Notes under the pieces: model-generated
Told to the model about the DNA's origin: nothing
Databases searched by the model: none
What the model saw: the letters and a program-made list of their open reading frames with translations, nothing else
Part shown: in pieces, positions 7,037 through 64,000 of the stretch
How positions within the stretch are numbered: position 1 is the first letter of the stretch
How the letters are laid out: the number at the start of each line of letters is the position of its first letter
Position numbers and translations under genes: made by a program
Assembly: GCA_035289625.1 (NCBI GenBank)
Contig: DATDWP010000021.1
Coordinates: forward strand, 16,053-80,052
DNA: 64,000 bases
Origin: an archaeon
GTDB lineage: Archaea > Iainarchaeota > Iainarchaeia > Iainarchaeales > Iainarchaeaceae
Direction of reading: 5' to 3'

Positions 7037-7053
7037 CTAAATTCACCTAATTT

Positions 7054-10531: not shown

Positions 10532-10533
10532 CC

Positions 10534-14229: not shown

Positions 14230-15240
14230 TTGTACTATATGAAATTTGCCAAATCCGCCGATTCTTTCAGGGTTGAAGAACTGATGCACCCTAACCTTTT
14301 GGGCGGAAATTACTTCTATTACATTTTGGAAAAACACGGCATTGATTCAGCCAGCGCAATAAAGGCCCTTGAAAAGCAAAACAAAGCCCGCATCCACTAC
14401 TCTGGGCTAAAGGATGCAAACGCCGCCACATCACAGTGGATATGCTCACTAAAAGAGCTCAAAGAAACAGACGACAAGAGAGTACAATTAACATACGCCG
14501 GAAACGGGGAGAACAGGATACATGTGGGGATGCACAGCGCAAACAGGTTCATTGCAAAGCTTAGCGATCTTACGTTGGAAGAGAAAAAATTCCTCAAAAA
14601 GGGACTGCACAAAATCACCCTGCCGAATTATTTTGACGAGCAAAGATTTAATGAAAAAACCCTCCGGTTAGGAAGTGCCCTGCGTTCGGGACAATTCGAG
14701 ATGGCATTAAAAACTGCACTAACAGAAAAACTCGGCATGGAATCTGAAAAATCCCATAAAATAAAGGCAGAAATAAAAGAGAAGTGGGGCAAGTGGGACG
14801 AATTAATCAAATCGGAGACAATTCCTAGAAGCAAAAAAGCAATTTTTGAACATTTACAAAAAGGCGCAAACTTTCGGCAGGCAATAGAACTGCTTGAAAA
14901 AAAGACGGTTGCAATAGCATGCAGGGCAATACAGTCACTTGAATTCAACACTGAACTTTCCGCGCAGATATCAAAGCACAAAAACAGCCCTCAAAAATCC
15001 ATCCAAATAGCAAACAGCACCTACCCAATAGAATTCAGGAAAAGGGCGGTGAAAAGGCAAATTGAGATCAGCGAAGTGTACCCTTCAAAAGTAAAGCTTG
15101 TGAGAAAGACATTTTTTGAACTAAAAAAACCAATTGTAAAATTTTCAGGCAACGATTGCACCCTTGAATTTTTCCTAAAAAAAGGGTCCTACGGAACAAT
15201 TACAATAAAGTGCATCATCGCCCTATGTGAAAACAAATAG
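14230..15240 (+). CDS. truD: tRNA pseudouridine synthase, TruD/Pus7 family
   Basis: Catalytic motif IHYSGLKDANAATSQW (G.KD..A.T.Q) and downstream NYFDEQRF (N.FG.QRFG-like). 336 aa. Confidence 0.6.
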   Translation: MYYMKFAKSADSFRVEELMHPNLLGGNYFYYILEKHGIDSASAIKALEKQNKARIHYSGLKDANAATSQWICSLKELKETDDKRVQLTYAGNGENRIHVGMHSANRFIAKLSDLTLEEKKFLKKGLHKITLPNYFDEQRFNEKTLRLGSALRSGQFEMALKTALTEKLGMESEKSHKIKAEIKEKWGKWDELIKSETIPRSKKAIFEHLQKGANFRQAIELLEKKTVAIACRAIQSLEFNTELSAQISKHKNSPQKSIQIANSTYPIEFRKRAVKRQIEISEVYPSKVKLVRKTFFELKKPIVKFSGNDCTLEFFLKKGSYGTITIKCIIALCENK

Positions 15241-33183: not shown

Positions 33184-33233
33184 ACGTTCCCTCTATTCGC
33201 AACAATTAAAATTTGCTTCTATCACGAGGACTT

Positions 33234-33812
33234 TTACCTCGGTTTCTGGGCAATGATTTTTATAACTTTTTTCCCTTTTGCGTATTCTCTTTGTGCATAT
33301 TTCGAGCCGCTTGCCTCAATTTCAGTCGGCTTGAATTCCCTTGCAATCACTTTAAAACCGGCATTACGCAAAAGTGGGATTATTTCCCGATCAATGTAGC
33401 GGTGCTCAAATGTGGTTAGCAGGAACTTTCCGCCCGGCACGAGTATTCTTTTGACTTCATTTATATAGCCCGGCAATGTTCTTTGAATCTCTGAAAAAGT
33501 CTGACCTGCAATGGCCGCTCTTTTTCGAATATCAGCCAGATTTGTTACATCTTTGCCATACGGGACATGATGGATGAAAAAATCAGCAATCACTGCAGGA
33601 ACTGAGGCTGATTCTATCTTTTCCGTCTCAGCCAATACATTTCCTTTGACATAGCCCATATTACTTGGCAGTTTATATCTTGGCTTTTGCAAATCCACAA
33701 CTTTCACAGTACCCGGAAGATTTTTTTTCAAGAGCCTTTGTGCAAATTTAAAAGCCCTCCCCTTTGTCGGCCCTTCCCCGAACGATACCATTTTTATTTT
33801 AGGTTTTTTCAC
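33234..33812 (-). CDS. Class I SAM-methyltransferase-like protein with degenerate motif I, embedded between uvrB and uvrA
   Basis: 192 aa. [12 protein letters not shown] in place of the GxGxG motif, motif-II-like [10 protein letters not shown] and motif-III-like [12 protein letters not shown]. Its stop overlaps the uvrB stop region (ATGA coupling). Confidence 0.4.
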
Positions 33813-35788
33813 TTAGAATCCCCCTTTTTCGATTTTGACTGAGCATAAGCCTTTGAATCTTGCAAGAGCGCATACTCCTGTTTTAGGGCTTCGAGCTGGT
33901 CTCTGAATGCAATTGCGTTTTCAAAGTCAAGGTTCTCAGCACTTGTTCTCATTGCAGCGTCCAATTCAGCAATTCTTTTTTCAACATCCTGCCTGCCCAT
34001 GTGCTTTAACCCTTTTATTTCACTCTTCTTTTGTGCAAGCGCCTTTACAACCGGCATTGGAGTGATCCCATTTTCTTTGTTGAATTTCTCCTGATCCCCT
34101 CTTCTTTTTTTTGTAATTGCAACTGCGCCTACTATTGATTTTGTAATTACATCAGCATAGAGAATTACATGGCCATTTAGATTTCTTGCCGCTCGCCCAA
34201 TTGTTTGTATAAGGCTTCTCTCATCCCGCAAAAACCCTTCCTTGTCAGCATCCAAAATACAAATGAGGCTAACCTCAGGCAAATCAAGGCCTTCTCGCAA
34301 AAGATTTATCCCTACAAGAACATCAAATTCTCCAGCGCGAAGCTGCCTTATTAGTTCAATTCTCTGCAAGCTCTCAATTTCCGAGTGCATATACCTTACT
34401 TTGACATTTTCCTTTGCCAAATAATCAGTTAAGTCCTCAGCCATTCTTTTTGTTAGCGTTGTAATTAAAACGCGCTCCCCTCTTTGCACGGTTTTTCCGA
34501 TCTCTTCAAGCATGTCCTTGACCTGGTTTTTTATAGGACGAACTTCAACTTGCGGGTCAAGTAGCCCGGTTGGCCTTATGATCAGATTCACAATTTGCCC
34601 GGAACTTTTCATTTCATATTCAGCAGGGGTTGCAGAAACAAACACAACATGGTTGAAGTACTTTTCAAATTCATCAAATTTTAAAGGACGGTTATCAAAA
34701 GCGCACGGCAGCCTAAATCCAAAATCCACAAGATTTTTTTTGCGCGCAAAGTCCCCATTATACATTGCCCGTGATTGCGGAATTGTCTGGTGTGATTCAT
34801 CAACTATTAGCAAAAAATCATTCGGGAAATAATCCAAAAGAACATAAGGCGGTTTTCCTGGGGGCCTTCCGTCAAAATGGCGCGAATAATTCTCAATCCC
34901 GTTGCAATATCCCATTTCCTGAATCATTTCAAGATCATATTTAACCCTTTGTGAAAGCCTTTGCGCTTCTAGCGGCCCAAGAGTCGGAAGATGATCTTGC
35001 AGCTCCTGTTTTATTGCCCCCATTGCTCGCTGTTGCTTTTCAATTGGAACAACATATTGGCGTGCCGGAAAAACCCTTGCCTCATCAAGAGTGCTAATTG
35101 TAGTTGCAGAGAGCGGATCAATTTCTGAAATTTTACTAACAACACTTGAACCGAGTTCAATGCGAATGATATTTTTCTCAGAAGCAGGAATTATATCAAT
35201 TGTATCCCCTCTTACCCTAAACCTTCCGGGTTCTAATACCTGGTCATTTCTCTCATATTGCATTTCAATTAGGCTCTTTATGATATTTGAGCGCGTAACT
35301 TCTTTTCCCTTTTCAATTACAAGCGAGAGGTTGGAAAAATCATCAGGGTTCCCCAAACCATAAATGCACGAAATCGAGGCAACCACTATTACATCATCGC
35401 GCGACAGAAGGCTTGAAACTGCATGCAGGCGCATCTTTTCAATCTGCTCATTTACAGTTGCTTCCTTTTCAATGTAGAGATCAGAAGTTGGCATGTAACT
35501 CTCCGGCTGGTAATAGTCATAGTAGGAAATGAAATATTCCACCCTGTTTTTGGGAAATAATTCCTTTAGCTCCGTGTAGAGCTGCGCTGCAAGGGTTTTA
35601 TTGTGCGCTAGTACTAGGGTTGGCTTTTGCACCTTTTGTATTAAATTTGCCATTACAAAAGTCTTTCCACTTCCAGTAATTCCAAGCAATGTCTGGCACG
35701 GGTATTTGGAATAGCCTTCGTATAACTCTCTAATTGCCTCTGGCTGGCCGCCTGCTGGCTTAAAGGGAGAAACAAGTTCGAATCCCAT
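33809..35788 (-). CDS. uvrB: Excinuclease ABC subunit B
   Basis: 659 aa. Helicase motif I GITGSGKT, DEAD-like DESHQT, C-terminal UVR domain (coiled-coil tail). Confidence 0.9.
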   Translation of the reverse strand: MGFELVSPFKPAGGQPEAIRELYEGYSKYPCQTLLGITGSGKTFVMANLIQKVQKPTLVLAHNKTLAAQLYTELKELFPKNRVEYFISYYDYYQPESYMPTSDLYIEKEATVNEQIEKMRLHAVSSLLSRDDVIVVASISCIYGLGNPDDFSNLSLVIEKGKEVTRSNIIKSLIEMQYERNDQVLEPGRFRVRGDTIDIIPASEKNIIRIELGSSVVSKISEIDPLSATTISTLDEARVFPARQYVVPIEKQQRAMGAIKQELQDHLPTLGPLEAQRLSQRVKYDLEMIQEMGYCNGIENYSRHFDGRPPGKPPYVLLDYFPNDFLLIVDESHQTIPQSRAMYNGDFARKKNLVDFGFRLPCAFDNRPLKFDEFEKYFNHVVFVSATPAEYEMKSSGQIVNLIIRPTGLLDPQVEVRPIKNQVKDMLEEIGKTVQRGERVLITTLTKRMAEDLTDYLAKENVKVRYMHSEIESLQRIELIRQLRAGEFDVLVGINLLREGLDLPEVSLICILDADKEGFLRDERSLIQTIGRAARNLNGHVILYADVITKSIVGAVAITKKRRGDQEKFNKENGITPMPVVKALAQKKSEIKGLKHMGRQDVEKRIAELDAAMRTSAENLDFENAIAFRDQLEALKQEYALLQDSKAYAQSKSKKGDSK

Positions 35789-38614: not shown

Positions 38615-38623
38615 TAATAAAAG

Positions 38624-38717
38624 TGGGAGAGCCCAGATTTGAACTGGGGTCGACACCAAATTGGAAGCGTTTACCTCTCCCCAAGGTGCCATACTAACCA
38701 AGCTATACTACTCCCCC
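38624..38717 (-). tRNA. Intron-containing tRNA, anticodon most likely UGG (Pro); ~20-nt intron 3' of the anticodon loop; no encoded CCA
   Basis: Reverse complement reads GGGGGAG-TA-GTAT...GGCAC-CTTGGG-[intron]-GTGTC-GA-CCCAG-TTCAAAT-CTGGG-CTCTCCC-A. Acceptor stem 7/7 (one G-U), canonical T-arm, 94 nt. T-rich tract follows on the minus strand. Confidence 0.6.
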
Positions 38718-42580: not shown

Positions 42581-42700
42581 TGGGATTGCCCGGATTTGAA
42601 CCGGGGTCGTAAGCTCATTTGAAGGCATTCTTGCAAAAGCACGTTTTGCCGAAAAACCCTCCCAAAGCTTATATGCTAGACCAGGCTACACCACAATCCC
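42581..42700 (-). tRNA. Intron-containing tRNA (~42-nt intron), anticodon most likely GGG (Pro) if the intron sits at the canonical 37/38 position
   Basis: Reverse complement GGGATTG-TG-GTGT-AGCCTGGTCTAGC-ATAT-AAGCT-TTGGGA[intron]G-AGCTT-ACGA-CCCGG-TTCAAAT-CCGGG-CAATCCC-A. Perfect 7-bp acceptor stem and canonical T-arm. Oligo-T tract immediately 3' on the minus strand. Confidence 0.55.
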
Positions 42701-51043: not shown

Positions 51044-52147
51044 TTGCTCAAAATGCAAATATTTATATTATTATTTTCATATATTCTAACTATGGCAATT
51101 GAAGACCTCGACTTACAAGACCGCAAGATTCTATTTGAGCTTGACAAAAACAGTAGAATTACATTCAAAGAACTCGGAAAAAAACTTCACATTTCAAAAG
51201 AAACCGCATCTTTTAGGGTAAAGAGGCTTGCAAATGAAGGATACATCAAGAACTTCATCACAACAATTAATGTATCAAAACTCAACAGGTTCTACTACAA
51301 AATGTTCTACAAGTTCCACAAAACAACACCTGCAATAGATTTGGAAATAATAACATTCGTGCAAAACTACCGAGCAGTTGCCTACTTTGCAGGCCTTGAA
51401 GGAAGGTATGACATCACTTTTCTTCTCCTCTCAAAAAATTTCAGTGACCTCTATAAATTCCTTGTCCCATTCCGGGAAAGGTTTGGGGAATATATCTTAG
51501 AACAGGAAATTCTCACGCTCACCTCTACCCATAGATTCAACTTCAGGTTCTTTTTTGAACGGGAAACAGAACTAGTGCATACAAAATATCCAGAAGAGCT
51601 AAAAGAACCAGATATTGATCAAATAGATTACCAGATCCTTGCAAACCTTGCGAAAAACTCCCGCATCCCATTAATAGAACTTGCAAAAATCACAAAAACC
51701 GAGACAAATGTAGTAAAATACAGAATCAAAAAACTGCTCAAGGAAGGGATTATAGGCACGAATGTCCTTGACGTGAATTTTGAAAAATTCAAAATCCAGC
51801 AAATACAAGTGGATTTTACGCTAAAGGATCATTCAGTCACCAGCAAACTCATTGATTTTGTCGCCCAAAACCCAAAATCAACATTTGCGACAATCACTTT
51901 GGGAAAATACGATCTTGCAGTTGAATTTGTTGTCCAGGGCACTAAAGAGCTGCGCAAAATACTAAGTGAAATAAAGGAAAAATTTTCCCAAGACATCATT
52001 AACCATGACATTTTCATAATGGAAGAGCACATTGTCAACTGGTTCCCATATAAGCCGGAAAAAAGCTTCTTCGACCTCAAGCCATTTAAAGGGAAGGACA
52101 AAGATGCAAGCTCTACAGTAGATGAAATAGTATATGGCGGAAAATAA
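51044..52147 (+). CDS. Transcriptional regulator with two tandem Lrp/AsnC-type HTH-RAM modules
   Basis: DLDLQDRKILFELDKNSRITFKELGKKLHISKETASFRVKRLANEGYI and IDQIDYQILANLAKNSRIPLIELAKITKTETNVVKYRIKKLLKEGII. 367 aa. Confidence 0.6.
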   Translation: MLKMQIFILLFSYILTMAIEDLDLQDRKILFELDKNSRITFKELGKKLHISKETASFRVKRLANEGYIKNFITTINVSKLNRFYYKMFYKFHKTTPAIDLEIITFVQNYRAVAYFAGLEGRYDITFLLLSKNFSDLYKFLVPFRERFGEYILEQEILTLTSTHRFNFRFFFERETELVHTKYPEELKEPDIDQIDYQILANLAKNSRIPLIELAKITKTETNVVKYRIKKLLKEGIIGTNVLDVNFEKFKIQQIQVDFTLKDHSVTSKLIDFVAQNPKSTFATITLGKYDLAVEFVVQGTKELRKILSEIKEKFSQDIINHDIFIMEEHIVNWFPYKPEKSFFDLKPFKGKDKDASSTVDEIVYGGK

Positions 52148-52167: not shown

Positions 52168-53070
52168 TTAAACTGACAAGTGCTTCCTTGCAAGTTCAAT
52201 CTCTTTCTTCCCGCCTAAATACAGAGGAGTTCTTTGCGCGAGCGATTGCGGTTTTATATCATGCAGAGCAATAGCTCCGTTTGAACCGGCACCCCCTGCT
52301 TCTTTTGCAATGAGTGCCATTGGGTTTGCTTCAAAAATAAGCCGCAGTTTTCCCTCTGCAGAAGATTTTAGAGCAGGATAGCAAAATATTCCGCCATAGG
52401 AGAGGATTTGCGAAAAATCCGGAACAAACCCACCGGAAAATCTTAACTTATAATTTTGCGATTCCAAATCTTCAATAAATTTTTTATGCCCCTCGATCCA
52501 ATCGCTGCGAATCCCGCCGGGACAATAAATTTTTCCTTGCGGAATTTGGATATTTTCTTTTTTTAGAACAAAATTCCCGGCAGAATTCATAACAAATTCA
52601 TGTACTCCGCTCTTTGCAGTGTAGACTAGCGAAGTAAGAGGCCCATATACAATATACATTGCCCCGTCCATTTTTGAGCCCTTCTCCATTACATCCCCTT
52701 CATTAAAAAAGCCCGCAATTGTGCCCACTGCAAGATTGGTTTTTATAAGAGAACTGCCATCAAGCGGATCGAGGGTAACTCCAAAAGAGCCCTTTGCTTT
52801 TACAATTTCAATTATATCATCCTGCTCTTCAGAAGCAACAGTTCTAACAAGCCCAGATTTTTCCATAGCAGTTAGAAAGGTAGAGTCGGCAAACTTGTCA
52901 AGTTCCATTTGCTGCTCACCATGGATATTTTTGGTTGAGGCAACCCCGCTATGAGTAAAAAATGCCTTCTGCACGTTCCTACTCTTTTTTGCAATAAGCA
53001 GCATTATTTTTGCAAGCCCCCTATCTACCCCATTTTGCTTCAAATGCTGTTCAAAACGCATAAAACCCAA
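52168..53070 (-). CDS. fbp: Fructose-1,6-bisphosphatase class I
   Basis: GEQQMELDKFA, DPLDGSS and GKLRLIFEANPMALIAKEAGG correspond to the GEVQQKLDLFA, DPLDGSS and [21 protein letters not shown] motifs of class I FBPases. Confidence 0.75.
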   Translation of the reverse strand: MGFMRFEQHLKQNGVDRGLAKIMLLIAKKSRNVQKAFFTHSGVASTKNIHGEQQMELDKFADSTFLTAMEKSGLVRTVASEEQDDIIEIVKAKGSFGVTLDPLDGSSLIKTNLAVGTIAGFFNEGDVMEKGSKMDGAMYIVYGPLTSLVYTAKSGVHEFVMNSAGNFVLKKENIQIPQGKIYCPGGIRSDWIEGHKKFIEDLESQNYKLRFSGGFVPDFSQILSYGGIFCYPALKSSAEGKLRLIFEANPMALIAKEAGGAGSNGAIALHDIKPQSLAQRTPLYLGGKKEIELARKHLSV

Positions 53071-53122: not shown

Positions 53123-54157
53123 ATGGCCAAGCGAAAACCAAAGGTACTTATTATAGGGACTGGCGGAGCAATAAGTGCCAAAAAGGTCGATGGGAGATGG
53201 AAATATGGGGAAATTAGCGCAGAAGAGCTCATAAAAAACATACCCCAAATCCAAAAAGAATACGAACTAGAAATCACCCACCTCTTCCGAATGGATAGCT
53301 CAGATATCCAGCCCGAGCAGTGGCTAACCCTTGCAAACTTCATATACTACCGCCTGAAAAACTACGATGGAGTTGTTGTCACAATGGGCACTGATACCCT
53401 CGCTTATGCTGCAACTGCAATATCATTTCTCATACAAAACCTCCCAAAACCAATAGTATTCACAGGTTCAAAAACCGACCCACTAGAACTTAACACAGAT
53501 TCTTATGCAAATTTGCGCCAGGCAATAATGGTTGCAGCACAGGCTAATATTGCAGAAACAGTGATTGTATTTGACGGGAAAATAATGCTTGCAACAAGGG
53601 CAAAAAAAATTAACGCATCCGAATACGGGACATTTGCAAGCTTTGGGGCGCCTGAAATCGGCAAAATACAGCAGCTGATTAGCCTTAGCGGGAAATACAA
53701 AAAAAGATCAAAAGTTTCACCACAGCTCCACCAGAGCCTTGAAACAAAAGTTGCGATATTAAAAGTCTATCCGGGGTTTGATGGGAACCGCATAAAACAT
53801 CTTGTCGATTACGGCGCGCGCGGCATAATTCTTGAAGGCTATGGCCTTGGAAACCTCCCTCTACTTAACAGTAAAGTACAGGAAGGACTCGAATATGCAA
53901 ATGAAAAAAAAGTGCCTGTTGCAATAGCAAGCGACTGCTCCCTTGGAGAGTATTGGAATTCTATTTATGAAACCGAAATAGGGAAAAGGCTAACCGGCCT
54001 TCATGTAATACCACTCTATGACATGATCACGGAAACAGCATATGTGAAAATGATGTGGGTAATGGGACAAACAGAGGATATGAAAAAAGTGCGTGAGATG
54101 ATGCAAAAGAACTACTCACACGAAATCACTGTCCCTAAAAAAAATGGCGGCAAATAA
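53123..54157 (+). CDS. L-asparaginase type I-fold protein (AnsA-like paralogue immediately upstream of gatD)
   Basis: KVLIIGTGGAIS (TGGTIA-type), GVVVTMGTDTLAYAA. 344 aa, lacks the GatD N-terminal domain. Confidence 0.65.
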   Translation: MAKRKPKVLIIGTGGAISAKKVDGRWKYGEISAEELIKNIPQIQKEYELEITHLFRMDSSDIQPEQWLTLANFIYYRLKNYDGVVVTMGTDTLAYAATAISFLIQNLPKPIVFTGSKTDPLELNTDSYANLRQAIMVAAQANIAETVIVFDGKIMLATRAKKINASEYGTFASFGAPEIGKIQQLISLSGKYKKRSKVSPQLHQSLETKVAILKVYPGFDGNRIKHLVDYGARGIILEGYGLGNLPLLNSKVQEGLEYANEKKVPVAIASDCSLGEYWNSIYETEIGKRLTGLHVIPLYDMITETAYVKMMWVMGQTEDMKKVREMMQKNYSHEITVPKKNGGK

Positions 54158-55478
54158 AATGGACGCAGAAAAATTCACCAAAAAAAACAAGCTCTTAGCC
54201 GGCCGGGGAATAAAAGTAACAAAAAACAATGAGCATTATAGCGGAATACTGCTTCCTTCCCCGGAAAACTCGGAAAATTTACACCTAAAGCTCTCTTCAG
54301 GATATAATATTGGCGTAAAAATTGAGGGGAAAATAAAAATCGAAAAATTACCGGAAAGCAAAAAAATCGGAAAAGCGCAAAAAAAAGAAATTTCGCAAAA
54401 TAACTCTCTTCCAAAAATTTCAATACTTCACACCGGCGGCACAATTGCAACGCGCGTTGACTACCGCACAGGAGCAGCATTTTCCTCATTTGACCCGCAG
54501 GATCTTCTTTCAATGTTTCCGGAACTCTCCCAAATAGGGAATTTTTCTTCAAAACTCCTTGCCAATATGTGGAGTGATGACCTGCGCTTTGAGCACATAG
54601 CCCTAATTGCAAAGGAAGTCAAGAACGCACATGAAAAAGGAGCAAGTGGAATAATTATCGGAATGGGAACTGACAATTTAGCAGTAGGATCAGCTGCTCT
54701 TGCATTTACGCTAGAAGAGTGCCCAATACCTGTAATATTTGTAGGAGCACAAAGAAGTTCAGATAGGCCAAGTTCAGATGCTGGAATGAACCTAATATGC
54801 GCAGCCAAATTCATTGCAAAAACCGATTTTGCAGGGGTTGCAATCTGCATGCACAATTCAAGTTCAGATGATAAATGCGCAATACTGCCCGCTTGCAAAA
54901 CCCGCAAGATGCACTCTTCGGAGCGCGGCGCGTTCAAGGCAATAAATGACATCCCCATTGCACTTGTTGACTTTTCGGTCGAGAAAATTGAATTTTTGAA
55001 AAAGGATTATTCGCGCAGAAGCGAGCAGAAAATTATTCTAAAGCCAAAATTTGAAAATAAAGTGGCACTTTTCAAAATCCATATCAATATGCACCCCGAC
55101 CAATTTGAATTCTATTCAAAAAACAAATACAAAGGGGTGGTAATTGAAGGCACAGGGCTTGGCCACACTCCCGGGCATAACCCAAACCAATTTACAAAAA
55201 TACACGAAAAGTTCTTCCCGGCGCTAAAAAAACTCATTTCTTCAGGATGCACTGTTGTAATGACTACAAATACAATCCACGGAAGAGTGCAGATGCATGT
55301 ATATGATAAGGGAGCCGACTTAACAAAATTAGGGGTAATCTCAGGCGAGGATATGCTCCCAGAAACTGCATTTGTAAAACTTTCATGGCTTTTAGGAAAT
55401 TACAAACCTGCAGAGGCCAAAGAACTTATCGGGAAGAATTTGCGCGGGGAAATAAGCGAATTTACCAAGTATACCTAG
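54144..55478 (+). CDS. gatD: Glutamyl-tRNA(Gln) amidotransferase subunit D
   Basis: GatD-specific N-terminal domain (YSGILLPSPE...LKLSSGYNIGVKI) plus asparaginase core (ILHTGGTIATRVDY, GMGTDNLA). 444 aa. Overlaps the upstream gene by 14 nt. Confidence 0.75.
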   Translation: MAANKMDAEKFTKKNKLLAGRGIKVTKNNEHYSGILLPSPENSENLHLKLSSGYNIGVKIEGKIKIEKLPESKKIGKAQKKEISQNNSLPKISILHTGGTIATRVDYRTGAAFSSFDPQDLLSMFPELSQIGNFSSKLLANMWSDDLRFEHIALIAKEVKNAHEKGASGIIIGMGTDNLAVGSAALAFTLEECPIPVIFVGAQRSSDRPSSDAGMNLICAAKFIAKTDFAGVAICMHNSSSDDKCAILPACKTRKMHSSERGAFKAINDIPIALVDFSVEKIEFLKKDYSRRSEQKIILKPKFENKVALFKIHINMHPDQFEFYSKNKYKGVVIEGTGLGHTPGHNPNQFTKIHEKFFPALKKLISSGCTVVMTTNTIHGRVQMHVYDKGADLTKLGVISGEDMLPETAFVKLSWLLGNYKPAEAKELIGKNLRGEISEFTKYT

Positions 55479-55530
55479 CAACTCTGAAACTGACAGATCA
55501 GTTTTTATACCTCAAAAACACACTTGATTC

Positions 55531-55977
55531 ATGCCTCATACCTGGGAAGAAGTTTACAACCCAAGCAAAGAAACCATCGAAAGAATATTAGCAAGAGCTG
55601 AAAAACTCGGGATACCAAAAAGAAAATTTCCGCAAGTCAGAAGATTTATTGAATTGAGTTTGGGAAGGGAAGAGATTGCAGAATCAGGATATGGAAAACA
55701 CACTGACAAAAGAGCGGCAGTTTATGAAACGTTGCGTAAAATTACACATGGCGAAATGAGAAAAATTGCCGTTTTGAATAAGCTTTCAAGAGCGCTTCAA
55801 CTGCCTATAATGGAGCAAGGCAAAACTTACAAAATAACAGGACTTTTGGTAACCAACGGATGGATAGGCGATTATAGAGGGTTACTCAGATATGCCAGCG
55901 GGGAAATGGAAAGGCGCGCTAGAAAATACAAAAAAAGCCCATCTCTGTTTGTAATGAAGAAAAAATTTACCCGATGA
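55531..55977 (+). CDS. Hypothetical protein (148 aa)
   Basis: Open frame downstream of gatD. No motif recognised. Confidence 0.35.
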   Translation: MPHTWEEVYNPSKETIERILARAEKLGIPKRKFPQVRRFIELSLGREEIAESGYGKHTDKRAAVYETLRKITHGEMRKIAVLNKLSRALQLPIMEQGKTYKITGLLVTNGWIGDYRGLLRYASGEMERRARKYKKSPSLFVMKKKFTR

Positions 55978-55985
55978 AAATAAAT

Positions 55986-57074
55986 TTACCTCTGCTCTGT
56001 CACTTCCCCGGCATAGTTTGTGCTCATTGCTTTTCTGAAATCCTCAATTGTTGAACAAATACCATTTCCGATAAGCCAACGCACTTTCACATCCACTGCA
56101 ACATCAGTGTGGTCATAGCAGGGAATCGCGCCTGCTTTTACAGCTTCAAACCCTGTTTCATAATGCATAGCCAGTGCATTGCCACCGGTAAATTTTGTTG
56201 TGATAAAGAGCGGAGTCATATATTCATGCGCAGCTTGTTTTATTGTAGGGATAAGACTGAATTCGCCTTCATTGCATACATTTCCCTCTCCAAGTGATTT
56301 GAGTATCATTGCTGAAACGCCGCCGCCAGTAATAAACCCGAGCAACAAACTCGGCTCAATCCCTGGAGATAATTCAAAGCTCACAACTCCCCTTCCAAAT
56401 TTTGGCGCAATGGAAACACCGCCAGATTGGCTCTTCTTTTTCAAAAGCAACATATTAAGGTGCACACCGGATGCATCAATTACACCCACATTTGGAAAAG
56501 CCGGAGAATGAAATGCATCAAAATCTTTCTCGCTTCTTTTTAAGGCTCGGCATCCCAACATCACCCTATCCCAGAAATTAATCATTACATCTGCAACCTC
56601 GTTTTTTATCCCGGATTCGAGCGTTCTGAAAAGATTCTCAAGATTAAACCGCCCATCTCCACCCTCCTGATAAATCGGGGTTTGAGAACCGGTTATACAA
56701 ACAGGTATTTTGAGCCAACTCTTTTTTAGTTCGCGACCATTTAACGAATATGCAAGAGCAGTTGCAGTGTATGCCATTGTATCGGTTCCGTGGGCAATTC
56801 CTACCCCATCAAACCCTTCGTCATCCTGGGCTTTTTTGATGCGGAAAATCAATTTTTCCCAATCATTAGGAGTCATATTAGTACTATCTTTAGCAGTGAC
56901 TATTTCGAACTTCACATCAAGCCTATTTGAAAATTTCTCTAAAATTGGATTGCATGCCTCCTCAAAAACTTTTGAATCTTTAGGAGGTATTAGTACAATT
57001 TCTTCGCCCCTTTTTTCAGGTATTTGACCAATAGTGCCACCGTTGTATAGGAATAGCACTTTTTTCTTTGCCAT
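55986..57074 (-). CDS. Third L-asparaginase-fold paralogue
   Basis: KKVLFLYNGGTIGQ and GIAHGTDTMAYTA. The start is taken at MAKKK (57074); the ORF track extends to 57119. Confidence 0.6.
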   Translation of the reverse strand: MAKKKVLFLYNGGTIGQIPEKRGEEIVLIPPKDSKVFEEACNPILEKFSNRLDVKFEIVTAKDSTNMTPNDWEKLIFRIKKAQDDEGFDGVGIAHGTDTMAYTATALAYSLNGRELKKSWLKIPVCITGSQTPIYQEGGDGRFNLENLFRTLESGIKNEVADVMINFWDRVMLGCRALKRSEKDFDAFHSPAFPNVGVIDASGVHLNMLLLKKKSQSGGVSIAPKFGRGVVSFELSPGIEPSLLLGFITGGGVSAMILKSLGEGNVCNEGEFSLIPTIKQAAHEYMTPLFITTKFTGGNALAMHYETGFEAVKAGAIPCYDHTDVAVDVKVRWLIGNGICSTIEDFRKAMSTNYAGEVTEQR

Positions 57075-57254
57075 AACAAAACCACAAAACTCTTCTCTGT
57101 CCCCTAAATTGAAAAGCATAATATAGTGGCCAGTTGATCAATATAACCTTATTCCATTTTTAACCGTAAATAATTCAATATAATTATAAAAATACTCTAA
57201 AAATGGAATATTTCCCCATATTATTTAATAAATGATGAATATTATAAGGCGTAC

Positions 57255-57707
57255 ATGGACCAACCTAAAATAGATCCAAAAGACAGAGAAATAATCAATC
57301 AACTTATTAGCAACAGCAGGCAAACAGTTGGCCAGCTTGGCAAAAAAATCGGCATGCCGCCCACTACAATCCACAACAGGATAAAAAAGCTCGAACACGA
57401 AGGGATAATTCGCAACTACACAGCAGATATTGACTACAAAAAACTCGGAAGGCCGGTGATGGCATTTGTGGGAATTACTGTAAACTATAATGTTGAGGGC
57501 AAGAAAATCAAGCAGCAGGAAATTGCGCGGCAAATAAAAAAACTCGAAGGCGTGCGCGAAGTGACCATACTAACAGGCGGGCTTGACATAATCGTAAAAG
57601 TTATGGCAATCGACATTGACGATCTAAATGAACTTGTCACAGAAAAACTGCGCGACATCGATGGCGTTGACAAAACGCAGACAATGATTGTACTCACGCA
57701 GGTATGA
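57255..57707 (+). CDS. lrp: Lrp/AsnC-family transcriptional regulator
   Basis: DREIINQLISNSRQTVGQLGKKIGMPPTTIHNRIKKLEHEGII plus a RAM domain. 150 aa. Confidence 0.75.
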   Translation: MDQPKIDPKDREIINQLISNSRQTVGQLGKKIGMPPTTIHNRIKKLEHEGIIRNYTADIDYKKLGRPVMAFVGITVNYNVEGKKIKQQEIARQIKKLEGVREVTILTGGLDIIVKVMAIDIDDLNELVTEKLRDIDGVDKTQTMIVLTQV

Positions 57708-57743
57708 GAAAACTTTAAATAAGACAAATGTCTCATTAGTGCA

Positions 57744-57947
57744 ATGGCCCTCAAAGCTGACAAACAAGAAAAAGTAATACAAGCCCTCAAAAGCGCCCCG
57801 CATGGAATGTGGGTTCGCGAAATTGCAAGAAAAAGCGGCATTGATAAGAGCACATGCTCGCGCTATCTTGAGAAGATGGGTAGTGAAGTAGAATTTGAGT
57901 TCTGGGGCCGCAACAAAATCTTCCGGCTAAAAAACCTAAACAGCTAA
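57744..57947 (+). CDS. Small winged-helix DNA-binding protein (67 aa), hypothetical
   Basis: VIQALKSAPHGMWVREIARKSGIDKSTCSRYLEKM is HTH-like. Confidence 0.4.
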   Translation: MALKADKQEKVIQALKSAPHGMWVREIARKSGIDKSTCSRYLEKMGSEVEFEFWGRNKIFRLKNLNS

Positions 57948-57989
57948 GTTTTAAATCAGTTCAATTATGCACTATTAGAGTGATAGTAA

Positions 57990-59876
57990 ATGGATTACGA
58001 TTACAAATCCCTTGGGCTAAAATGCGGGCTTGAAGTGCACCAACAGCTCGATACCGGAAAATTATTCAGTAGGTCCCCTTCAATATTGCGCGAAGACAAG
58101 ACGGATTTTACAATCAAAAGGTTTTTGCGCCCAGTTGCCTCTGAAACAGGAGAATATGATAGGGCGGCACTAGAAGCCCATTCAAAAGGACTCTTTTACA
58201 ACTACGAAGGCTATCGTGATACTATTTCCCTAGTCGAACTTGACGAAGAGCCCACACAGCCAATTGATGAAGAGGCATTTAGAACCGTTCTTGAAATTGC
58301 ACTCCTCACAAACAGCAACATTGTGGATGAAATGTTTGCCATGAGAAAAATGGTAATCGATGGCTCTAACACATCCGGCTTTCAGCGCACAATGCTTGTT
58401 GCAACAGGCGGACAAATAAAACTAAAAGAAGCTGAACTTGGAGTTCAAACAATTGTAATTGAAGAAGATTCAGCCCGCCCAATTGAAAAAACAGACAAGC
58501 ATATAACCTACAGGCTTGATAGACTTGGAATTCCACTAATCGAACTGGCAACAGCCCCGGATATCAAAACCCCGCAACAGGCAAAAGAAGCGGCACGCGC
58601 CATTGGAAATTTATTCAGAAGAACAGGCAGAGTAAAGCGTGGACTTGGGACAATCCGCCAGGACCTTAACGTCTCAATTTCTGGGGGAGCTCGAGTTGAA
58701 ATTAAAGGAGTGCAAGAACTTGAAATAATCGATGAATATGTAAAAAGGGAAGTGCAGCGCCAGAAATCGCTTCTTGAAATAAAAGAAGAACTTGCAAAAA
58801 GGGGAGCAAAAAAAGAAATTTTAAAATCAACTGCAAAAGACATTACACCACTTTTTAGTTCAACTGAAGCAAAAATAATAAAAAATTCAATTTTACGCAA
58901 CGATAAAATTCTTGCTCTAAAACTTGAAAAATTTGCAGGAATTATAGGAAGGGAAGTGCAGCCAAATAGAAGGCTTGGAACCGAATTTGCCGACCATGTG
59001 AAAACCAAAACCGGGCTAAAGGGCCTATTCCACAGCGATGAACTGCCAAATTATGGAATATCTCAAGAAGAAGTTGGAAAAATAAAATTAGAGCTAGGAT
59101 GCTCATCCGAGGATGCATTTGTAATGGTTGCCGGCGAGCAGCAAAAATGCCAAAACGCCTTGGCAGCGGTTTTGCAAAGGGCAGCCCAGTGCTTTATTGG
59201 TGTTCCGGAAGAAACCCGCGGGGCAATTGATGCAGGAAACTCCGAATACCTAAGGCCACTTCCGGGAGCTGCGCGAATGTATCCTGAAACCGACCTTGAA
59301 ACAATCTGCGTTGAGCAAAAAACACTAAAACAAATAAAATCCTCTCTTCCTCTAACAGAAGACCAAAGATCACAGCTCTACTCAAAATGGGGACTTAACG
59401 AAAACCATATTGAGCAAATGAAACTGAGTAACTTTGCAAGGCTATTTGAGCGCGAAGTAAAGAATGGGGCAGACGCAAAAAAAACAGCGGTATTTTTGCT
59501 AGAAGCTTTAATAGAGGCGCGAAGGGACGGAGCACAAATTGATAATTTGCACGAAAAAGAGCTCTCCGAATTTATTGATGGAATTAAGAGCGGGAAAATA
59601 ACAAAAGAAATACAAAAAGAACTAATAATTGAAAAGAGCGCAAACCATTCACTTGCCATAACGCAATTGCTAAAATCAAAAGGAACCCAGGCAAATTCAA
59701 ATGAGCTGCAAAAAGTAATTGAAAAAATTGTCAATAGCAATATTGCGCTTATAAAAGAGAAGAAAATGGGATCCCTTGCAGCGCTGATGGGGGACTCGAT
59801 GAAAGAATTAAAAGGAAGGGCATCCGGAAAAGAGGTAAGCGAAGAATTAAAGAGGCAAATAGGCAAAATGGTATAA
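57990..59876 (+). CDS. gatE: Glutamyl-tRNA(Gln) amidotransferase subunit E
   Basis: 628 aa. N-terminal LGLKCGLEVHQQL (GatB/E signature), an insertion domain, a C-terminal YqeY-like tail. Archaeal-specific enzyme. Confidence 0.85.
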   Translation: MDYDYKSLGLKCGLEVHQQLDTGKLFSRSPSILREDKTDFTIKRFLRPVASETGEYDRAALEAHSKGLFYNYEGYRDTISLVELDEEPTQPIDEEAFRTVLEIALLTNSNIVDEMFAMRKMVIDGSNTSGFQRTMLVATGGQIKLKEAELGVQTIVIEEDSARPIEKTDKHITYRLDRLGIPLIELATAPDIKTPQQAKEAARAIGNLFRRTGRVKRGLGTIRQDLNVSISGGARVEIKGVQELEIIDEYVKREVQRQKSLLEIKEELAKRGAKKEILKSTAKDITPLFSSTEAKIIKNSILRNDKILALKLEKFAGIIGREVQPNRRLGTEFADHVKTKTGLKGLFHSDELPNYGISQEEVGKIKLELGCSSEDAFVMVAGEQQKCQNALAAVLQRAAQCFIGVPEETRGAIDAGNSEYLRPLPGAARMYPETDLETICVEQKTLKQIKSSLPLTEDQRSQLYSKWGLNENHIEQMKLSNFARLFEREVKNGADAKKTAVFLLEALIEARRDGAQIDNLHEKELSEFIDGIKSGKITKEIQKELIIEKSANHSLAITQLLKSKGTQANSNELQKVIEKIVNSNIALIKEKKMGSLAALMGDSMKELKGRASGKEVSEELKRQIGKMV

Positions 59877-59877: not shown

Positions 59878-60735
59878 ATGCCAAAAACAATTACCCTAAA
59901 ATCAGTAAAAAAATCCCTACCAAGACGCAATCCACTCTCGCACAAAGGCCAAAATGGCAGGGTTCTTTTAATTGGCGGCTCGCAAGATCTAGTAGGCGCC
60001 CCAGCACTATCTGCCCTAGCAGCGCTTGCAACACTTAGAATTGGTTCAGATCTTTGCACCCTTGCAGCCCCGCAAAAGGTTGGATGGGCAATACACAAAT
60101 ACTCCCCAGATCTTATTGTTAGAAAATTTAGCGGAAAAATATTTACCAAAAAACACCTAAAAGATCTTCTTGCGCTTGAAAAAAACTCTAATGTGACACT
60201 AATCGGCCCAGGAATTGGGAAAAATCGCAAAACCCTCTTTCTTGCACGCAAATTTTGCGAAAAAGCAAAAAACCCGCTTGTAATTGATGCCGATGCAATA
60301 GGCGCGTGCCGCAAAATCCGCTTCAAAACAAAAGCGCTTATCACCCCGCACGCAAAAGAATTTGAACAATTCAGCGGAATTGATATATCAAAAATGAGCT
60401 TAAAAGAAAAAATAAGTTCTGCTAAAAAAGTTGCGGCAAAATCCAATTGTACAATTTTACTAAAAGGGCCAACAGACATTATAACCGACGGAAAAACAAC
60501 CTATTTGAATACAACAGGAAATGCTGCAATGACTATTGGAGGAACCGGGGACATACTTGCAGGAATTTGTGCAGGCCTTATTTCCCAGCGCGCAGATCCA
60601 ATTAGTGCAGCAGGAGCGGGAGCATATGTTAACGGAAAAATCGGAGAAGAGCTTTTTTCAAAATCAGGATATGGCCTAATAGCTTCGGATTTTCTAGCAC
60701 TAATTCCCAAGTGGACAAAAAGAATACTGAAGTGA
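59878..60735 (+). CDS. nnr: ADP-dependent NAD(P)H-hydrate dehydratase (YjeF C-terminal / Nnr family)
   Basis: GGSQDLVGAPALSALAALATLRIGSDL, LIGPGIG, GGTGDILAGI. 285 aa. The start lies 1 nt after the gatE stop. Confidence 0.75.
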   Translation: MPKTITLKSVKKSLPRRNPLSHKGQNGRVLLIGGSQDLVGAPALSALAALATLRIGSDLCTLAAPQKVGWAIHKYSPDLIVRKFSGKIFTKKHLKDLLALEKNSNVTLIGPGIGKNRKTLFLARKFCEKAKNPLVIDADAIGACRKIRFKTKALITPHAKEFEQFSGIDISKMSLKEKISSAKKVAAKSNCTILLKGPTDIITDGKTTYLNTTGNAAMTIGGTGDILAGICAGLISQRADPISAAGAGAYVNGKIGEELFSKSGYGLIASDFLALIPKWTKRILK

Positions 60736-60833: not shown

Positions 60834-61445
60834 TCAGATTTTTGTCCCGAGCACTATAAATGAAATAACCAAAGTAAACACCAATATAACCCCGAGCACA
60901 ATATTTAGCGGAACAAGAACAACTATTAGCCCCTGTGCATCAGTTAGGTTAAATCTTGCCTTCACAAACCTAAACATCAGAACAACCCCATAGAACTGCA
61001 CAAGCACAGATACAATCCATCCAAGCACCGGAACAAGCGCAACAACACCTCGCACAAGAGTAATTGAGCCAAATAGAGAAAGGAGAGCCCCGTTGAAATT
61101 ATTGAGAGAATCCGGCTTATTGCTAAAAAATTTTGCAATAAAAAAATGCAGCGCGCCCCATACATAGCTAATAAGCAAATTCAGAACAAAACCGACCGGA
61201 ATTAGTATCAATGACCCCAAAATTGCCGCCCCTATCAAAAGAAAGGAGCTAAGAAGGCTCTGTGGCGAGAGAACAATCCCCACAATGAGAAATAAAATCA
61301 CTTCAAAAAGAATAAGCGCGGCAACAACAAAAAATGCAAGCGCGTTTGTCTTGATCCCTTCAGCTATCGAAATGTTCTGCCCGGCAAAAGAGTCCATATG
61401 GGTCTTGCCTAAAAAAAGGTCGATCATTTCACGGATGTGCATCAT
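60834..61445 (-). CDS. Polytopic membrane protein (Yip1-like topology), hypothetical
   Basis: 203 aa with 5 hydrophobic helices. Confidence 0.4.
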   Translation of the reverse strand: MMHIREMIDLFLGKTHMDSFAGQNISIAEGIKTNALAFFVVAALILFEVILFLIVGIVLSPQSLLSSFLLIGAAILGSLILIPVGFVLNLLISYVWGALHFFIAKFFSNKPDSLNNFNGALLSLFGSITLVRGVVALVPVLGWIVSVLVQFYGVVLMFRFVKARFNLTDAQGLIVVLVPLNIVLGVILVFTLVISFIVLGTKI

Positions 61446-61912: not shown

Positions 61913-62411
61913 ATATAGCCATATAATCAGTAACCGGCCCTAGAAGAATTATCCTAGAAGGCATACTAAAGGTTGTACTGAAAATTAAAAACCGCAGACC
62001 GCGTGCAAATGATTTTACGCGATAGATTCTTCTAAATAGCAAATAATACCCGATTAGAAGCAAAACCACCCAATGTTCATAGAAAGAAAAATATACCCCT
62101 AAAAATAAAAGCAAGGCAAATTTTGAAAGTGTGAAAAAGAACGCCCTATGAATGCTTGCATGCTTATTACCCGCTAGATGAGTAAGTGATGCATTAATTG
62201 CGGTCCCAATTAAAATCGTTGCAATCACGGCCACAAAATAATAAATCGCCATTAAGATTAGGCGCTCTTTTAGAAAAATAAGCACTAGTTGTGGCCTAGG
62301 ACAACAACAATTAAATAAATACCCCACTCCAAAATGAGTATGATTGCAGATGCTCTTGCATATTTGGGGTTTAGCCCTTCTGAAATAAAGGTATACCTTT
62401 TCCTTGTGCAA
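61902..62411 (-). CDS. Small polytopic membrane protein, hypothetical
   Basis: 169 aa with 4 hydrophobic helices. Overlaps neighbouring ORFs at both ends, so the start is uncertain. Confidence 0.3.
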   Translation of the reverse strand: MHKEKVYLYFRRAKPQICKSICNHTHFGVGYLFNCCCPRPQLVLIFLKERLILMAIYYFVAVIATILIGTAINASLTHLAGNKHASIHRAFFFTLSKFALLLFLGVYFSFYEHWVVLLLIGYYLLFRRIYRVKSFARGLRFLIFSTTFSMPSRIILLGPVTDYMAIFIY

Positions 62412-63074
62412 AAGGGAAGCAGCTATCCAAATGAAATAAGCGCAAATACGTCAGTTAACAGGACAAATGTATATGAAGCTCTAAGCAGGCTTGTTTCAAA
62501 AGGCGTGATATCCTATATAACCCGCAATAAAGTAAAAGTTTTTGAAGCAAAATCCCCGGGCACTCTAAAAATGCTAATAGATGAAAAAAAGAAAGAAGAT
62601 GAAAAAAATACCAAATTAGCACTCAAAGACATTGAAAGATTATCAAAATCACCCCCACATGCAAAAACCAAACTTGACGCAGGAATTTTTATAGGAAGAA
62701 GAGGGATAAAATCACTTTTTGAAGAAATGCTAACTGCAGGAAAACCACTACATTTTTTTGCAGCAGATCTGCAATTCCGCTACTTTTTTGGACCCTATTT
62801 TTCCCAATGGCACAAAAAAAGATCAGAACTAGGAATAGAGCAAAGAACAATTTTCCCAGAAACCGTGAGAAAGAAAACCTGGGCAATGCCTCTTTGGAAA
62901 AGAAAATTCATCCCAAAAGAATACGCAAACCCCACAACAACCATAATCTATGGAGATACCTGCATTTTTGTGCAATGGCTCGGAGAGCCTTTAGCAATAA
63001 AAATAGAAAATCCCGGAATTGCAAAATCGCATTTGAACTACTTTAACCTTTTGTGGAAAATTGCAAAGAACTAG
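62340..63074 (+). CDS. TrmB-like winged-helix transcriptional regulator
   Basis: N-terminal LGFSPSEIKVYLFLVQKGSSYPNEISANTSVNRTNVYEALSRLVSKGVI. 244 aa from ATG 62340. Confidence 0.5.
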   Translation: MIADALAYLGFSPSEIKVYLFLVQKGSSYPNEISANTSVNRTNVYEALSRLVSKGVISYITRNKVKVFEAKSPGTLKMLIDEKKKEDEKNTKLALKDIERLSKSPPHAKTKLDAGIFIGRRGIKSLFEEMLTAGKPLHFFAADLQFRYFFGPYFSQWHKKRSELGIEQRTIFPETVRKKTWAMPLWKRKFIPKEYANPTTTIIYGDTCIFVQWLGEPLAIKIENPGIAKSHLNYFNLLWKIAKN

Positions 63075-63094: not shown

Positions 63095-64000
63095 CTAAAG
63101 TAAAATTTCTCGTTCATCATAATAAAGTGGTTTAGATCCGTAATGTAACCAACTATTTATTTTATAGAAATAGTTTTTTGTCAAATTTAATTTTTTAAAA
63201 ATCCTTCGCCTTCCAAGACCACTCTCATGCATTTTTATTACCAGATCATATATCTCCCATTCTTTTTTCAGATTTGATATATTATTGGAAAAATAATATG
63301 CTGAAGAAGTAAACTTCTGCTGTTTTTGATCGGCATATATGAATGGAATTTCCTTGAATAAACGCATAATATTTGGACTATGAGAATTAATTGAAAAATA
63401 AAGTTTTTTTGAAAAAGAACCGTCTTTTCTTATTGTTTTGTAACTATTATCCACGGTAACATTTGAAGTGCATATTCCAAACGCCCAAAGTAAATTTTTA
63501 ATTTGTTCTAAGAATTGTTTCAAAGAAGATTCTTCACTCTCAATTTTATGCAATCCGAAGCTAGAAGCGTCAAATGCATTTTTAGCCCTTAATTTTGAAT
63601 ACTTCAATTCATTACCTAACAACACCCCAAGAAAAGTACGCTTTATTTCTTCGTCACCTTCCATTATCCAATTTGGAACTTTCATCGCAGTAGCAACTTT
63701 ATCCCCACATGGAACTCCAGCCAAGTGTAATAACCGTGAAAGAGGACTATTACTTACCTCTAATCTCCAACATGACCCCTTCACTACCTGGGAGTAAACT
63801 TTGTCTTTTTTAACTTTCTTTATTATACCCTCGCTGTGATGATGTTTAATTTTTGTGGAAATCCCATAAAGATTAAATATTTTTGACCTAATTTTTTCTA
63901 AATCGTGCTTTTGACCAAATAAAGTAAATCCACCTAAATGTTTCATTAAATGCCCATCGCCAAATAAAAAAGCCACAAGTTCAGTAAAAAGAATAAACTC
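63095..64000 (-). CDS. LAGLIDADG-like endonuclease candidate; the frame stays open to the window edge, so the N-terminus may lie beyond it
   Basis: First motif (E)LVAFLFGDGHL, second motif-like FLGVLLGNELKYS about 105 aa later, basic/aromatic C-terminal part. The ORF-track M at 63976 is a GTG. Confidence 0.35.
   Translation of the reverse strand, partial: EFILFTELVAFLFGDGHLMKHLGGFTLFGQKHDLEKIRSKIFNLYGISTKIKHHHSEGIIKKVKKDKVYSQVVKGSCWRLEVSNSPLSRLLHLAGVPCGDKVATAMKVPNWIMEGDEEIKRTFLGVLLGNELKYSKLRAKNAFDASSFGLHKIESEESSLKQFLEQIKNLLWAFGICTSNVTVDNSYKTIRKDGSFSKKLYFSINSHSPNIMRLFKEIPFIYADQKQQKFTSSAYYFSNNISNLKKEWEIYDLVIKMHESGLGRRRIFKKLNLTKNYFYKINSWLHYGSKPLYYDEREILL

Follow-up and report, generated by a model that had tools for sequence, protein, structure and literature searches.

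We analyzed a 64,000-nucleotide stretch of DNA from an archaeon of the Iainarchaeaceae (contig DATDWP010000021.1; hereafter the window), in which the amidotransferase genes gatD and gatE are interleaved with two further asparaginase-fold genes, here called open reading frame (ORF) A and ORF C, and with two candidate regulators. Genes were taken from the ORF list for 50 to 64 kb of the window and identified with Pfam and NCBIfam. All genes named in the initial annotation were recovered at the positions it gave, and the family models back their identities, including the N-terminal domain of GatD and the third paralogue on the opposite strand; the three asparaginase-fold genes that it had described around gatD and gatE, gatD itself among them, are present. 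The locus is composed of the following features.

52168-53070, minus strand: class 1 fructose-1,6-bisphosphatase (FBPase; Pfam FBPase and FBPase_C), the conserved left flank
53123-54157, plus strand: ORF A, 344 amino acids, type I asparaginase fold (Asparaginase and Asparaginase_C; TIGR00519, 267 against a cut-off of 260.5)
54144-55478, plus strand: gatD, 444 amino acids (GatD_N, Asparaginase and Asparaginase_C; NF003217, 465 against 310)
55531-55977, plus strand: ORFan of 148 amino acids without a family match, in the variable spacer between gatD and ORF C
55986-57074, minus strand: ORF C, 362 amino acids, within a 377-amino-acid ORF that reaches 57119 (Asparaginase and Asparaginase_C; TIGR00519, 173 against 260.5)
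57075-57254, no strand assigned: divergent promoter region between ORF C and lrp (palindrome, half-site and TATA-like box)
57255-57707, plus strand: full-length Lrp/AsnC regulator, 150 amino acids (HTH_AsnC and AsnC_trans_reg)
57744-57947, plus strand: winged helix-turn-helix (wHTH) protein, 67 amino acids (HTH_IclR and HTH_24)
57990-59876, plus strand: gatE, 628 amino acids (NF003107, 769 against 456; GatB_N, GAD and GatB_Yqey)
59878-60735, plus strand: NAD(P)HX dehydratase, the conserved right flank directly after gatE (TIGR00196, 233.8 against 129.85)

By their family profiles, GatD and GatE, the glutaminase/asparaginase-type and kinase/transamidase subunits of the archaeal Glu-tRNA(Gln) amidotransferase GatDE, are canonical. 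GatD passed two GatD models (NF003217, 465 against 310; TIGR02153, 445.7 against 324), retains the catalytic T/T/D/K residues, and is the only one of the three paralogues with GatD_N (PF18195; 52.4 bits against 25.7), which is absent from ORF A and ORF C. GatE scored 769.4 bits against 456 with NF003107 and contains the GatB_N catalytic domain, the GAD insertion and the GatB_Yqey tail. The three asparaginase-fold proteins share little sequence with one another (27% identity between A and GatD, 26% between A and C, and 23% between GatD and C), and a rough neighbor-joining tree, a comparison proposed with the initial annotation, placed them in three separate clades. Thus, the paralogues are old families and not a recent expansion, which rules out a recent duplication of gatD.

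The layout of the locus is typical of the lineage, since the cluster recurs in archaeon GW2011_AR10 (Candidatus Iainarchaeum, CP010424.1), the closest complete genome to the window, whose source is a DPANN relative of Candidatus Iainarchaeum, and in at least five further contigs of Iainarchaeia metagenome-assembled genomes detected by tblastn. The order in AR10 is FBPase, an A-like gene, gatD, C on the opposite strand, asnC, a gene for a 68-amino-acid helix-turn-helix (HTH) protein, five inserted genes, gatE and nnrD. FBPase occupies the same left-flank position in AR10, L008, L009, L028 and L125, and the NAD(P)HX dehydratase gene the same right-flank position in AR10, L009 and L032. We distinguished three modules in the cluster: ORF A followed by gatD, ORF C divergent from lrp/asnC, and the wHTH gene followed by gatE and nnrD. 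In L124, ORF A precedes gatD without ORF C or the Lrp gene. L125, likewise without C or Lrp, contains FBPase, A and gatD and, apart from these, the wHTH gene (58% identity) followed by gatE (69%).

ORF C departs furthest from known enzymes. Homology places its start most likely at Met16 (57074), giving 362 amino acids; database entry P0001 has this length and is 100% identical to ORF C, and the 15-codon extension of the longer ORF is not conserved. A look-up of P0001 among contigs returned no record. As with ORF A and GatD, ORF C matched PF00710 and PF17763, with a weak match in the C-terminal domain (37 bits), and it fell below the cut-offs of both the type I asparaginase model (TIGR00519, 173.3 bits against 260.5) and the GatD equivalog (117.7 against 310). 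An AlphaFold2 model of ORF C, with a predicted local distance difference test (pLDDT) score of 81.5, matched type I asparaginases and GatD at TM scores of 0.77 to 0.86 and 25 to 29% identity; the structure search with this model confirmed the fold and gave no functional lead.

Aligned with GatD and with solved asparaginases, ORF C reads YNGGTIGQ, with Asn at the place of the nucleophilic Thr of the TGGTI motif. Of the 120 best database homologues of ORF C, 107 carry Asn at this position, 5 Cys and 3 His, with no Thr among the 117 counted, and none of the 32 labelled genome loci of the C clade has Thr there. The lid-loop consensus of the clade, drawn from 20 diverse sequences, has no Tyr, and ORF C carries an insertion before the ITG(A/S)Q strand relative to type I asparaginases. 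The HGTDT (Thr-Asp) and Lys positions are invariant in the clade, as is the substrate-binding Ser (DST-NMTPNDWE). Judged from these alignments, the C family has lost the Thr/Tyr half of the active site and kept the Ser and Thr-Asp-Lys half. The nucleophilic Thr is essential, as established work on EcAII, the guinea-pig enzyme and GatD has demonstrated. The initial annotation had suggested that the extra copies might supply ammonia. ORF C is an unlikely candidate for this role as an active asparaginase, since Thr gives way to Asn, Cys or His throughout its clade and the loop Tyr is missing.

We defined the scope of the C clade by scanning species-representative genomes and metagenomes. Sequences 57 to 91% identical were found in Iainarchaeia and in Woese-, Pace-, Aenigmat- and Nanoarchaeia, and the same range was found in bacteria of the Candidate Phyla Radiation (CPR), namely, Nomura-, Kaiser-, Berkel- (complete genome CP011213.1), Taylor- and Peribacteria. 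Everything outside the clade was at most 38% identical in these scans, giving the clade a sharp edge. The bacterial contexts are genuine, with genes for LepA, bacterial-type phenylalanyl-tRNA synthetase (PheRS), a PolyA_pol-type CCA enzyme, NAD-ligase-like and pilin-like proteins, and gatCA. Bacterial and archaeal C proteins are 63 to 69% identical, which points to horizontal exchange of C between CPR and DPANN organisms. In a rough tree, CPR sequences with Cys or His for the nucleophile formed the basal branches, below an Asn-type crown that mixed DPANN and CPR sequences. The initial annotation had considered that the two extra paralogues might prove to be an ordinary AnsA conserved at this locus in all relatives; the cluster is indeed kept in relatives, but this does not make the locus ordinary: the paralogues, at 23 to 27% identity, are not recent duplicates, and the C family has spread by transfer between CPR bacteria and DPANN archaea.

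The nucleophile position also varies past the C clade. A search of 1.8 billion representatives returned 122 proteins with E values of 1e-30 or lower. In the best 150 representatives (P0242 to P0391; 30 to 52% identity), 66 have Thr in the nucleophile column, 16 Cys, 6 Asn and 6 Ala, and 31 are gapped there; the rest include Phe, Met, Tyr, His, Leu, Trp, Glu and Asp, among other residues. The Ser, Thr and Lys positions were essentially fixed where aligned in the 58 best representative matches, and Asp was replaced by Asn in P0242, P0247 and P0261. These sequences suggest a wider radiation of asparaginase-fold proteins without the textbook nucleophile.

We next consider the genes beside ORF C homologues. 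Deduplication at 90% identity left 52 C loci, 29 of them with at least 2 kb on both sides. An amidotransferase gene was present in the flank of 13 of the 29 and lay within 2 kb of C in 11. The arrangements were as follows.

Woesearchaeota L023: bacterial-type aspartyl-tRNA synthetase (AspRS) and, farther on, lrp divergent from C, then gatC, a peptidyl-prolyl isomerase gene, gatA and gatB
Kaiserbacteria L024 and L027: ligA, C, gatC and gatA, with 63 to 64 nucleotides between C and gatC
Peribacteria L036, L091 and L092: C tail-to-tail with gatA, gatC and gatB
Woesearchaeota L012 and L088: gatD, then lrp divergent from C and, farther on, gatE
L059 and L060: gatE and gatD, divergent from C
Iainarchaeia: the arrangement of the window locus

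The link of the extra paralogues to amidotransferases that the initial annotation had raised holds at the level of gene neighborhood for C, whose relatives lie beside gatDE or gatCAB far above chance (binomial P = 5e-12 for 11 of 29 against an assumed chance rate of 2%, a rate that is our own estimate from genome size, and a P value that overstates significance because many of the associated loci are related and only about six or seven arrangements are clearly independent). Since these six or seven arrangements involve non-homologous partners (gatDE and gatCAB), inheritance of one layout cannot explain them. Where C precedes gatC, the two are on the same strand, with gaps of 22 to 64 nucleotides.

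These contexts bear on an account in which A and C have no functional link to the amidotransferases and are stand-alone amino-acid metabolism genes, their synteny being inherited, their genomes compact and blocks of genes co-transferred. Such an account is in keeping with the inheritance of the cluster within Iainarchaeia, with the roughly half of C loci that have no gat gene nearby, and with C homologues found also near genes for prolyl-tRNA synthetase (ProRS), threonyl-tRNA synthetase (ThrRS), PheRS and the CCA-adding enzyme, translation genes being abundant in these genomes. Asparaginase genes are furthermore known for frequent horizontal transfer (PMC9500103), which we count in its favor. 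Adjacency in varied gene orders with the non-homologous partner sets gatD/gatE and gatC/gatA/gatB, down to 22 to 64 nucleotides from gatC, argues against it, and we assign it a low probability.

The adjacent amidotransferases appear to be intact. The catalytic motifs of GatA next to C (Lys and GGSSGG/GGS) are in place, as is the T/T/D/K set of the window GatD, so C is not a substitute glutaminase; replacement of a defective glutaminase by ORF C was ruled out on these grounds. The Woesearchaeota L023 region (3259-14679) combines a bacterial-type AspRS with its GAD insertion, gatC-gatA-gatB, a C homologue and an Lrp gene, and from this gene content it looks like a transferred bacterial Asn-tRNA pathway cassette.

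DPANN gat loci attract further asparaginase-fold genes besides A and C. Proteins of 161 to 163 amino acids with only the asparaginase N-terminal domain are encoded next to gatD in L125 (8370-8855, minus strand) and near lrp-C-gatCAB in L023 (6930-7421, minus strand), the latter adjoining a gene for a 450-amino-acid protein without a family match. This family keeps HGTDTM and has Ala or Thr at the nucleophile position. We ruled out that these genes are truncated copies of C, to which they are 25 to 30% identical; they form a distinct short family. In an Aenigmatarchaeota contig, a canonical TGGTIAG asparaginase-fold enzyme is encoded tail-to-tail with C.

The regulator divergent from ORF C contains PF13404 and PF13412 HTH domains and a C-terminal RAM domain (PF01037, AsnC_trans_reg). 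Its best solved relative is Escherichia coli AsnC (2CG4, 74.9 bits), and it scored below the cut-offs of all NCBIfam equivalogs (AsnC, LysM, LrpA and Lrp). A divergent Lrp/AsnC gene lies within 1 kb of C in 16 of the 52 deduplicated loci, and those that we checked are all archaeal. The spacer between ORF C and lrp contains a conserved palindrome, ATGGAATATTTCCCCAT, at 57203-57219, and, at 57141-57157, a second half-site, GGAATA, that merges into a TATA-like box and is likewise conserved across spacers. Nine aligned spacers, ranging from Iainarchaeia to Woesearchaeota L035, share invariant TGG...CCATTTT and GGAATA...TTATAT blocks. A degenerate palindrome search of the window returned 29 matches against 16 ± 6 expected and no convincing additional sites under its loose pattern, which the spacer palindrome itself matches only with two mismatches. 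The 67-amino-acid wHTH protein is encoded in front of gatE in relatives at 55 to 60% identity, including in L125, which is without ORF C and Lrp. The two extra paralogues had been described as separated from gatE by the two regulators, which is correct for ORF C and not directly so for ORF A.

ORF A presents a different picture. It marginally passed the type I asparaginase model (TIGR00519, 267 bits against 260.5) and fell below the cut-offs of the GatD models (241 to 244 bits; 243.7 against 310); as PF18195 (GatD_N) is also absent, ORF A is not GatD. The window copy retains Thr13 (TGGAIS), Ser59, Thr90-Asp91 and Lys161. In the lid, the place of the Thermococcus enzyme's Tyr is taken by Trp in the alignment, with a Tyr two positions further along, in a conserved WKYGE motif. 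The roughly 40 homologues with at least 44% identity are all labelled Iainarchaeia or “Diapherotrites”; past Iainarchaeia, identity falls to 40% (Heimdallarchaeota) and about 35% (Thermococcus/Thermococcales asparaginases). Wherever context was readable, family members lay within about 40 nucleotides upstream of gatD, the most divergent members included. In the window, ORF A and gatD are tightly coupled with either gatD start: the 14-nucleotide overlap initially reported stands if gatD begins at the ATG at 54144, and it gives way to a gap of 1 nucleotide past the upstream stop if the second in-frame ATG, at 54159, is used.

The A family is conserved in position and eroded in its active site. 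A catalytic residue (Thr12, Thr89 or Asp90) has been lost in about 15 of the 40 members: the nucleophile position holds Met or Leu in 8 of the 40, the second Thr is replaced by Ser, Leu, Arg, Met or Ile in 6, and Asp is replaced by Asn in 2. The Ser, the GG and the family-specific WKYGE motif are kept throughout the 40 members, and ORF A is full length and 56% identical to its AR10 counterpart, about as conserved as GatE or FBPase. A family that is conserved yet eroded in its catalytic residues is under selection, though not consistently for catalysis. The exact ORF A protein was missing from a collection of 5.8 billion proteins, in which its best match was 62% identical and the exact ORF C protein was present, from a 116.5-kb NCBI contig of a metagenome-assembled genome; the ORF A gene may have been missed in the public assembly, or may differ there.

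The initial annotation had left room for catalytically dead copies and for paralogues with new roles. Catalytic Thr, Lys and Asp residues are complete in GatD and in the window ORF A, whereas ORF C keeps Thr-Asp-Lys and lacks the nucleophilic Thr. ORF C is thus pseudo-enzyme-like and ORF A in the window is not, and at least one paralogue, ORF C, falls clearly outside the canonical enzyme family. For ORF A, the proposed supply of ammonia or amide fits the catalytically complete window copy and is at odds with the loss of catalytic residues in roughly 40% of its family.

Considering both proteins together, A and C could be working asparaginases or glutaminases that provide ammonia or amide for GatDE or convert Asn/Gln to Asp/Glu for non-discriminating synthetases. 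ORF A passes the type I asparaginase model with Thr, Ser, Thr-Asp and Lys in place, ORF C keeps Thr-Asp-Lys and the substrate Ser, both genes lie inside the gat cluster, and the Cys of basal C-clade members is a possible nucleophile. Against these points stand the absence of Thr at the nucleophile position from all 120 best C homologues and all 32 labelled loci, the missing lid Tyr, the score of ORF C (173) below the TIGR00519 cut-off of 260.5, and an A family that tolerates Met or Leu as the nucleophile and Leu, Arg, Met or Ile as the second Thr and still stays upstream of gatD. Furthermore, an extra ammonia source is not obviously needed where GatD and the neighboring GatA are catalytically intact. 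We judge this explanation improbable as a whole, plausible for A in the window genome and poor for C.

The same losses of catalytic residues, in C and in many A-family members, might instead mark A and C as decaying relics or pseudogenes of once-active asparaginases, and the short 161-amino-acid asparaginase-N-only gene at the C position in L125 could be read in that way. However, ORF C is full length, has about 100 invariant residues among 20 diverse sequences, and is among the best conserved proteins of the locus, with 72% identity to AR10 against 54 to 62% for GatE and GatD and 63 to 69% between bacteria and archaea. ORF A, too, has its full length and roughly equals GatE and FBPase in conservation, and the 161-amino-acid protein is only 30% identical to C and belongs to a separate short family. 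Decay of both genes is thus very improbable.

To our knowledge, archaea have no glutaminyl-tRNA synthetase and have to form the glutamine of Gln-tRNA on the tRNA itself. Asn-tRNA is likewise made by a tRNA-dependent route in many CPR and DPANN organisms, ultra-small symbionts that scavenge amino acids. We propose that the locus is a gene neighborhood for tRNA-dependent glutamine formation, typical of its lineage, in which C may be a non-canonical, amino-acid-regulated accessory of tRNA-dependent amidation and A a GatD-coupled partner; we give this proposal an even chance of being right. ORF C would not be a conventional asparaginase, and its retained pocket would probably hold either an amide (Asn or Gln) or an acidic amino acid (Asp or Glu). 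It may work with a component common to both amidotransferases, either a GatB/GatE-type subunit or the whole pathway, and act as a sensor or hand-over factor for the amide donor or as a slow non-canonical hydrolase using Thr-Asp-Lys. The AsnC-like regulator would set ORF C expression by amino-acid supply. ORF A would be made together with GatD, possibly paired with it through the asparaginase-type dimer interface, and in the window genome it may still hydrolyze Asn or Gln.

A bolder version of this proposal joins two claims: that the C clade is a fourth amidotransferase component in CPR and DPANN organisms, and that ORF A and GatD form a heterodimer, giving an asymmetric GatD-A-GatE complex in Iainarchaeia. 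Here, C would dock on the GatB/GatE-type subunit or on GatC and would act as a gate or sensor for the amide donor, or supply nitrogen through Thr-Asp-Lys chemistry. We consider that both claims holding together is rather unlikely. If the accessory role of C is correct, a conserved interdomain protein beside gatDE and gatCAB would point to an unknown layer of an essential pathway, in donor supply, regulation or complex assembly, and a class-1 asparaginase fold would support function without its textbook Thr nucleophile.

Several observations weigh against the accessory proposal, in addition to the estimated chance rate and the relatedness of the associated loci given above. The functional reading is built from sequence and gene neighborhood only. 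In about half of the well-flanked C loci, no amidotransferase gene is nearby, and the Thr12-less distant relatives P0248 and P0250 (36 to 52% identity) had no gat genes in their two readable contexts. Basal CPR members of the C clade carry Cys or His at the nucleophile position, either of which could support real catalysis, so it may be incorrect to call some members of the clade “non-catalytic”. Because the window copy of ORF A has a full catalytic set, ORF A may be a plain active asparaginase. Finally, lrp, the wHTH gene and gatE each have their own A/T-rich TATA-like box upstream, so the three genes need not be co-transcribed.

Other features were noted in the window. The 148-amino-acid ORF at 55531-55977, absent from the initial gene list, was ruled out as a conserved member of the cluster: its sole match among the 5.8 billion proteins was a 99%-identical copy of itself, it had no Pfam or NCBIfam match and no tblastn match in related loci, and the spacer between gatD and ORF C in relatives is 29 to 470 bp long or holds unrelated small ORFs. 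At least four HTH regulators occur in the neighborhood, including a TrmB-like gene (62334-63074). Two genes upstream of ORF A, a 367-amino-acid protein with two AsnC-type HTH domains (51044-52147, plus strand), a tandem Lrp-like regulator, is encoded in a low-GC stretch (50 to 52 kb, GC 0.34); the last 2 kb of the window also have a GC content of 0.34. A 293-amino-acid ORF (63095-63976, minus strand) and a 203-amino-acid membrane-like ORF (60834-61445, minus strand) had no Pfam match. A complete bacterial-type UvrC-UvrA-(192-amino-acid ORF)-UvrB block lies at 28697-35788 (minus strand), with ProRS nearby (24908-26416). A 95-nucleotide tRNA-Pro(GGG) at 38623-38717 (minus strand) was detected by ARAGORN only and a 120-nucleotide tRNA match at 42581-42700 (minus strand) by Rfam only; both are longer than a plain tRNA and thus probably contain introns.

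The layout of the locus is ordinary for its lineage; the C clade and the behavior of the A family are what is new, on a known fold. Our literature search found no description of a Thr-less CPR/DPANN asparaginase clade, of its synteny with gat genes, or of the ORF A family. Relatives of A and C carry the public labels asparaginase, L-asparaginase, asparaginase domain-containing protein and even GatD; such naming is probably mistaken for C and questionable for some of the A family.

Among known systems, Hp0100 of Helicobacter pylori is a transamidosome accessory factor. Work on dynamic transamidosomes offers a related setting (PMC3241645). The likeness lies in the concept of extra lineage-specific proteins; such factors have no sequence or fold relation to C, whose interaction with an amidotransferase is hypothetical. 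The E. coli asnC-asnA pair and archaeal Lrp/feast-famine regulatory proteins likewise place an AsnC-like regulator divergent from an amino-acid-related gene, with an A/T-centered palindrome in the spacer. In E. coli, the target is asparagine synthetase, whereas here it would be an asparaginase-fold protein under a putative operator.

Type I cytosolic L-asparaginases (E. coli AnsA/EcAI, 2P2D; Pyrococcus and Thermococcus enzymes, 1WLS, 5OT0 and 9UFQ) are the best structural and sequence matches of A and C, which resemble them in fold and length, carry the same Ser and Thr-Asp-Lys motifs and, like them, have no signal peptide. C differs from them in having Asn (Cys or His in basal members) for Thr, no lid Tyr, an insertion and a failed TIGR00519 score, and the A family in its fixed position upstream of gatD and its tolerance of catalytic-residue loss. 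GatD (Pyrococcus abyssi, 1ZQ1; Methanothermobacter thermautotrophicus, 2D6F) resembles ORF C in its two asparaginase-type domains (Foldseek TM score of 0.79 to 1ZQ1), the company of gatE and the Thr-Asp-Lys triad. In contrast, A and C lack GatD_N and score 244 and 118, respectively, against the GatD cut-off of 310, and C is without the nucleophilic Thr. Unlike GatD, C also has homologues in GatCAB-using bacteria that lack GatDE.

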